Shown here: piece after piece, positions 6,311-6,478 of the stretch
Numbering within the stretch: the first letter of the stretch is position 1
Layout: each line of letters begins with the position of its first letter
DNA from: a virus
Taxonomy: Duplodnaviria > Heunggongvirae > Uroviricota > Caudoviricetes
Length of the DNA: 6,478 bases
Strand: one strand, 5' to 3'
IMG/VR virus record: IMGVR_UViG_2534681912_000008
Made by a program: the position numbers and the translations under genes
Notes under the pieces: model-generated
The model's database searches: none
Seen by the model: the letters and a program-made list of their open reading frames with translations, nothing else
What the model was told of the DNA's origin: nothing

Positions 6311-6385
6311 ATGTACCAGATGGAAAAAATCACAACAGGTGTGTCATACACCACGTCAGCGGTGGGAACGGGCTACTGGTTCCTG
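6311..6385 (+). pseudogene. Holin gene (S21/EssD-like pinholin) 5' fragment, interrupted after about codon 25 by an IS element
   Basis: GGAGA at 6300-6304 precedes the ATG at 6311. The first 25 codons ([25 protein letters not shown]) match the N-terminus of lambdoid-prophage holins as I recall them. From 6384 onward the sequence is an IS terminal repeat and the reading frame encodes no hydrophobic transmembrane segment. Confidence 0.6.
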
Positions 6386-6478
6386 AACCGCCCCGGGTTT
6401 CCTGGAGAGTGTTTTATCTGTGAACTCAGGCTGCCAGATCATCGTTTCCGATGGAAGCATAATAAGCTTTTTCTGCTT
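6384..6478 (-). mobile_element. Terminal end of an IS3-family insertion sequence, most likely IS629/IS1203-like; the element continues beyond the window
   Basis: The sequence begins with 5'-TG and reads TGAACCGCCCCGGGTTTCCTGGAGAGTG..., which I recognise as the IS629-type terminal inverted repeat. The minus strand at 6426-6478 encodes a transposase C-terminus. Orientation is with the transposase on the minus strand. Confidence 0.7.
6426..6478 (-). CDS. IS3-family transposase (OrfB) C-terminal fragment; the rest lies beyond the window end
   Basis: Minus-strand translation ...AEKAYYASIGNDDLAA ends at a stop whose complement is at 6426-6428. The frame is open to the window edge. Confidence 0.6.
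   Translation of the reverse strand, partial: AEKAYYASIGNDDLAA

Follow-up and report, generated by a model that had tools for sequence, protein, structure and literature searches.

A probable holin-null allele made by IS629 in the pinholin gene of a stx-less lambdoid Escherichia coli prophage

The window analysed here, a stretch of viral DNA of 6,478 nucleotides, closes with a holin gene that runs directly into an insertion sequence (IS), which raises the questions of what gene and what element meet at this point, how they came to be joined, and what the join leaves of the lysis function of the prophage. The initial annotation had proposed an IS629-like element inserted in the holin gene after about 25 codons, with lysis blocked as the expected outcome. 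The features around the junction, numbered from the first letter of the window, are the following:

6243-6281, plus strand: terminator-like hairpin and T-run between the NanS-p-like esterase gene and the holin gene, with a 12-pair stem at 6243-6271 followed by TTTTATTGTT
6300-6303, plus strand: Shine-Dalgarno sequence GGAG of the holin gene, read from the letters and the same in the intact allele
6311-6383, plus strand: 5' fragment of an S21-type class II holin (pinholin) gene, identical to the intact VR50 allele at 73 of 73 positions
6311-6478, plus strand: chimeric open reading frame, holin residues 1-25 followed by the IS-antisense residues NRPGFPGECFICELRLPDHRFRWKHNKLFLL, still open at the end of the window
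6381-6383: predicted copy of the target-site duplication, TCC (TTCC from 6380 if the duplication is of 4 bp); the second copy would fall beyond the window
6384-6408: terminal inverted repeat (IRR) of IS629, TGAACCGCCCCGGGTTTCCTGGAGA, complementary at 23 of 25 positions to the other end of complete copies
6384-6478, minus strand: right end of IS629 (IS3 family), the first 95 of 1,310 bp, identical at 95 of 95 positions to the copies in LC567824.1 and N25
6426-6478, minus strand: 3' end of the IS629 transposase gene orfB, whose last 16 full codons, AEKAYYASIGNDDLAA, lie at 6429-6476 and whose TGA stop lies at 6426-6428

The gene at this locus starts as it was first described, with a good ribosome-binding site, in which the GGAG is separated by 7 nt from the ATG at 6311, and with the expected N-terminus. 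Positions 6311-6385, which translate into 25 residues, show no base difference from nt 1-75 of the holin gene of E. coli VR50, an intact gene of 216 nt and 71 codons (L003 11311-11526). The VR50 holin matches the Pfam model PF04971, "Bacteriophage P21 holin S", at E = 9e-33 and 112.5 bits over model positions 1-63 of 64, and the gene is therefore an S21-type pinholin gene; a search of NCBIfam gave no model matching the holin. The S genes of Stx phages are of the same S21-type pinholin sort (PMC10462455). The product encoded in the window reaches only model positions 1-21 of the 64, with 21.8 bits against a cut-off of 26. Two transmembrane segments in one reading frame define the pinholin family, and the second hydrophobic segment is absent from the window-encoded product. 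The interrupted S locus is a disrupted gene rather than a functional member of PF04971.

The intact allele resembles the S21 pinholin of phage 21 (S21 68 / S21 71) in its length of 71 aa and its Met1/Met4 dual start, in its weakly hydrophobic TMD1, which ends in a YWFLQ aromatic patch, and in its strongly hydrophobic TMD2 and basic C-terminus. The surroundings are also alike, since S lies upstream of a lysozyme with a SAR-like N-terminus and of Rz in the intact relatives. The main difference of the window allele from S21 is that only residues 1-24/25 are still in frame. There is a smaller difference in the long form, whose extra N-terminal residues are MYQ in the intact allele, without an added basic residue, while those of S21 are MKS, and the long form may for this reason not act as an antiholin in the way that it does in S21. 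The fragment in the window consists of codons 1-24 and the first base of codon 25, and it still encodes the dual start and almost the whole of TMD1. In the intact holin, TMD2 reaches a 15-residue Kyte-Doolittle mean of up to 2.09 in windows starting at residues 36-39, and its hydropathy peak (residues ~36-55) lies wholly 3' of the break.

The position of the break can be read from the two alleles, since the intact one reads ...TGG TTC CTG CAG TTG and the window reads ...TGG TTC C|TG AAC CGC. The true break is at 6383/6384, between nt 73 and 74 of S; the BLAST match to the intact allele extends to 6385 because the first two bases of the IS, TG, are also the next two bases of the holin gene. The first estimate of about 25 holin codons is refined in this way to 24 native codons and one base, with Leu25 regenerated by IS bases. 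The holin had been described as cut in TMD1, and more exactly it is cut at the C-terminal end of TMD1, inside the aromatic patch (YWFLQW in S21 terms) that closes this segment. The remaining 46 S codons are cut off from the native translation start. The chimeric frame that takes their place is predicted to encode a peptide of 77 aa, provided that the IS has the sequence of the N25 copy. Its tail reaches a 15-residue Kyte-Doolittle maximum of only 0.87, compared with the 2.09 of intact TMD2, and has no hydrophobic segment, in line with the first reading that nothing transmembrane-like follows the start of the IS.

The IS string, TGAACCGCCCCGGG..., begins at 6384, where an IS629-like terminus had been proposed. 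Comparison with annotated IS copies gave identity at all 95 positions to the element in LC567824.1, whose depositor annotated it as "insertion sequence: IS3 family IS629". The end of the 1,310-bp element in rusA of strain N25 is the same over these 95 bp, and the whole N25 copy differs from the LC567824.1 IS629 at 9 of 1,310 positions (99.3% identical). The terminal repeat starts with 5'-TG, and the TG...CA ends and the OrfB C-terminus agree with IS629. The transposase C-terminus on the opposite strand, also recognized from the start, is confirmed by the orfB stop, which coincides with the end of the RefSeq IS3 transposase CDS in N25, about 42 bp inside the right end; two bases of the codon preceding the 16 full ones are also present at the window edge. 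OrfB of N25 matches two models, transpos_IS3 of NCBIfam (6e-94) and rve of Pfam (8.6e-28). Relative to the late operon of the phage, the transposase gene is read from the opposite strand. IS1203 and IS3411, likewise of the IS3 family, are named as isoforms of IS629, and telling IS629 from IS1203 is impossible on 95 bp, as the ends are the same in copies that RefSeq labels IS1203. Judged by the 95 bp of its right end, the element is IS629 or its IS1203 isoform. Both points on which the initial annotation had staked its reading, a holin frame that is not intact and a repeat that is an IS terminus, are found in the window.

The prophage that carries this locus is well represented by uninterrupted relatives. 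Positions 1-6385 of the window are 100% identical to E. coli VR50 and to more than 10 other complete genomes, including ML35 and DLI.6n, and 24 complete E. coli genomes hold at least 80% of the window. With 6385 of 6385 positions identical on one side and 95 of 95 on the other, the junction is therefore not a chance match. The RefSeq gene order in VR50 is RusA, antiterminator Q, Ser/Thr kinase, PP2C phosphatase, truncated DNA methyltransferase, three tRNAs, SASA-family esterase (NanS-p-like), "class II holin family protein", YdfR, lysozyme and Rz-type lysis protein, and the intact relatives have the 71-codon holin gene followed by ydfR, lysozyme and Rz. The prophage is without stx genes; it is a lambdoid E. 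coli prophage and a stx-less relative of the Stx phages. The hairpin at 6243-6281 is also found in relatives with an intact holin gene, and it is presumably read through by Q-modified polymerase.

Several other features of the upstream region were recorded. In the late operon, the interval from Q to the tRNAs holds a Ser/Thr kinase gene at 1091-1855 and a PP2C phosphatase gene at 1852-2595, which overlaps the kinase stop. The kinase matches the PADLOC defence models PD-T4-6 (1.4e-34), mad6 (6e-40) and Stk2 (1e-27), and the phosphatase resembles Stp1 at 2e-27, a match below the cut-off; the pair could represent an anti-phage kinase carried by the prophage together with an antagonist of that kinase. 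At 2745-3032 there is only a 3' remnant of a DNA methyltransferase gene, which is a pseudogene without its N-terminus in all close relatives, and strain AHB12 has a full methyltransferase gene of 1,050 bp at the same position. Three tRNA genes lie at 3082-3331, read by ARAGORN as Met(CAT), Arg(TCG) and Arg(TCT), the first of which is Ile in RefSeq. In the region 3082-4306 the tRNAs are followed by about 975 bp without a convincing gene, where Stx phages have stxAB, and near-identity to Stx phages begins only at about 3846-3886. The NanS-p-like esterase gene at 4307-6160, directly upstream of the broken holin gene, is intact and encodes 617 aa with DUF1737, SASA and DUF6645 domains.

The explanation that best accounts for the junction, and which is very probably correct, is an IS629 insertion that made a pinholin-null allele of S in this stx-negative lambdoid prophage. 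IS629 would have transposed into S after nt 73, in the orientation that sets its transposase gene against late transcription. The insertion appears to be recent, because neither the flanks nor the IS end differ at any position from uninterrupted copies (100% identity). Insertion of IS629 into genes of lambdoid prophages, with inactivation of the gene, has been described in O157 and other STEC (PMC9943667, PMC3271280, PMC10810198), and the element can be excised again in strains carrying IEE (PMC9943667). The window allele differs from these known insertions in its site, since S nt 73/74 was absent as an insertion site from 5,426 complete E. coli genomes and from the other collections searched. 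A megablast of 6150-6478 found none of these complete genomes with this junction. The junction 36-mer gave 0 exact matches in GTDB representative genomes, IMG/VR and JGI metagenomes, and the predicted far junction (GGTTCA, then TCC or TTCC for a 3- or 4-bp duplication, then TGCAG...) likewise gave 0 in GTDB, IMG/VR and JGI metagenomes. Exact look-up of the predicted 77-aa and 74-aa fusion proteins and of two small junction-spanning open reading frames found none of them in a collection of 15 billion proteins.

The first reading took simple insertion for granted. An IS629 terminus does interrupt a lambdoid holin gene here, as that reading held, and the window covers one side of the IS only, to a depth of 95 bases; an IS end of this kind may also mark an IS-bounded deletion, an inversion or a nested IS cluster. 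This is the less probable course, which still carries appreciable weight, and it would mean that the rest of S, together with the genes for lysis and morphogenesis, is missing or elsewhere, so that the prophage would be a remnant through those losses and not merely through loss of the holin, which would not be rescued in either case. Related genomes offer examples of both outcomes. In the O111:H8 strains 95NR1, 95JB1 and 8B, the right end of IS1203/IS629 adjoins the 5' fragment of the holin gene after codon 10, oriented as in the window, and a truncated tail-tip gene comes immediately next, meaning that the lysis and head genes were deleted there. Strain 90-3040 and three other genomes (L005 4224-4600) have an IS600-type end, TGAGGTAGCCTGAGTTTAACGG, which cuts the holin gene after codon 21; this IS600 is itself interrupted by IS629 (duplication CAA), and the downstream phage genes are replaced by unrelated ones. 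Both groups speak for a rearrangement, as does the production of adjacent deletions by IS629/IEE activity (PMC9943667).

Strain AHB12 (NZ_OZ546967.1), in contrast, shows the clean form of the event in the same gene, with the same IS in the same orientation. IS629 is found there after codon 21 of S, 11 bp upstream of the window break, with the 3-bp duplication GGC and with the downstream lysis genes intact. It differs from the window allele in being an independent event in another prophage background, which is without the kinase/phosphatase pair. In the same strain RefSeq annotates at L001 7468-7689 a "class II holin family protein" of 73 aa that begins within the IS629 left end and continues into the 3' portion of the holin gene; this hybrid CDS, with its apparent ATT start, is probably an annotation artefact, and if translated the product would bear TMD2.

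Other complete copies of IS629 lie in or next to the late region. N25 has the element in rusA (L002 5001-6310, duplication TGG), 7 bp from the left edge of the window (window 8-10), 118UI has it between the tRNAs and the esterase gene (duplication AGG), and M15 has it in Q in the opposite orientation. In all four strains (N25, 118UI, AHB12 and M15) the element stands between the two halves of its target, and the 3-bp duplication was read directly in N25, 118UI and AHB12. The complete IS629 copies compared had the 3-bp duplications TGG, GGC, AGG and CAA, and one had a 4-bp duplication, CCAG. The undiverged flank and IS end also suggest a very recent event, and most recent events are simple insertions. 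Since the flanks and the IS end have not diverged and every complete IS629 copy examined splits its target, these sequence comparisons favour a clean insertion over a rearrangement, and the AHB12 allele is the best model for the DNA that probably lies past 6478.

The prophage lineage is a repeated and independent target of IS629, with copies in rusA, in Q, in an intergenic position and in S. Two candidate patterns were rejected in this context. A hidden IS junction at the left edge of the window was considered, and window positions 1-10 are uninterrupted rusA sequence, identical to VR50. A bias of IS629 towards the orientation antisense to the late operon was also considered and is contradicted by the opposite copy in Q of M15; the apparent bias arose because the queries carried the right end of the IS and joined only copies of the same orientation.

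The consequence of the insertion for lysis follows from which part of the pinholin is lost. In S21, TMD2 makes the heptameric pinhole, while TMD1 is inhibitory and SAR-like and must exit the membrane; TMD1 is also reported, from work of 2006, to be dispensable. With the proposed insertion, the native ribosome-binding site and starts would now drive a chimera of about 77 aa in which TMD1 is kept and TMD2 and the charged C-terminal tail are lost. TMD2 has been described as "necessary and sufficient" for nanopore formation, and the N-terminus as a timer (bioRxiv 10.1101/2021.04.20.440580). An allele with TMD1 but without TMD2 is therefore null for pore formation, and the allele as encoded is holin-null.

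Loss of the holin does not have the same effect for every type of endolysin. The lysozyme of the intact relatives has the N-terminus MNAKIRYGLSAAVLALIAAGAPAP, weakly hydrophobic and Ala/Gly-rich, of the SAR type, and is 91-95% identical to the R lysozymes of Stx2 phages, so the partner enzyme looks like a SAR endolysin, judging by the relatives. R of phage 933W is listed as a SAR endolysin in the plasmid list of the Young laboratory (PMC9239132). On induction, the cell would no longer depolarise its membrane at a set time, the event by which the SAR endolysin is released in a single step. SAR domains also leave the membrane spontaneously at a low rate without holin, which leads to later lysis with a broader spread in time (PMC9239132), and impaired, untimed lysis is therefore expected here, not a complete block. 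Lysis and phage release would be late, gradual and inefficient rather than absent. The first reading that the insertion should block lysis is correct in that the allele is holin-null as encoded, and the full block is overstated for an S21-type pinholin whose partner lysozyme is SAR-like in the relatives. It had further been suggested that the upstream cargo is locked into a cryptic prophage, which is speculation. Excision and particle assembly can proceed in spite of a lysis defect.

It is improbable, on the other hand, that the lysis function is essentially kept and the insertion near-silent, either because translation of a 3' fragment with TMD2 begins within the left end of the IS or close to it, or at an internal TTG or GTG, or because S of a co-resident prophage complements the defect. 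E. coli strains usually have several lambdoid prophages, and co-resident ones often carry near-identical S genes, which could complement in trans. If the duplication is of 4 bp, the frame coming out of the IS left end is open into the holin remainder, as in AHB12, where PGAP calls the hybrid "class II holin". With the commoner 3-bp duplication, however, a TAG stands in the holin frame nine codons before the junction, and there is no ATG or Shine-Dalgarno sequence before TMD2, while the AHB12 hybrid, with its non-standard start, looks model-driven. Pores can be formed by TMD2 alone, and those of N-terminally truncated S21 are only transient (bioRxiv 10.1101/2021.04.20.440580).

A reading with still less to recommend it, and very improbable, would give the fragment an activity of its own: the TMD1-only peptide might behave in trans like an antiholin and inhibit the near-identical pinholins of lambdoid phages that share the host or superinfect it, and the 5' end of S might be a selected target through which cargo-bearing prophages are tamed, the cargo being the defence-like kinase, the NanS-p esterase and the tRNAs. 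Its basis is the anatomy of the allele, which retains its own ribosome-binding site, both starts and almost the entire inhibitory TMD1 and may allow such a role. Three other independent IS3-family hits are found in the first 65 bp of S in public genomes.

An assembly artefact, in which the end of a chimeric contig would join the prophage to a repeated IS, is hardly credible: the window does end inside a multicopy repeat, as is typical of short-read contigs, and the junction occurs in no other public sequence searched, but the join coincides with the very first base of the terminal repeat of the IS, as in real insertions, the microhomology of 2 bp (TG) cannot create a graph-based misjoin, and independent real insertions lie 11 bp and 43 bp away in complete genomes.

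The insertion of IS629 into S is best taken as one of several independent IS629 hits on this prophage, that is, as insertional decay of an ordinary kind. The element, the gene and the phenomenon are already known, the event is ordinary prophage decay, and its practical value is small. For the strain, it indicates that an active IS629 is carried, and the prophage is predicted to release particles and lysis-dependent products poorly and late. For the prophage lineage, it is a further example of IS629 eroding the regulatory and lysis region. It also brings a correction to how such alleles are read, since S genes of the Stx-phage type are pinholins that work with SAR endolysins, and loss of S should not be equated with a complete block of lysis.
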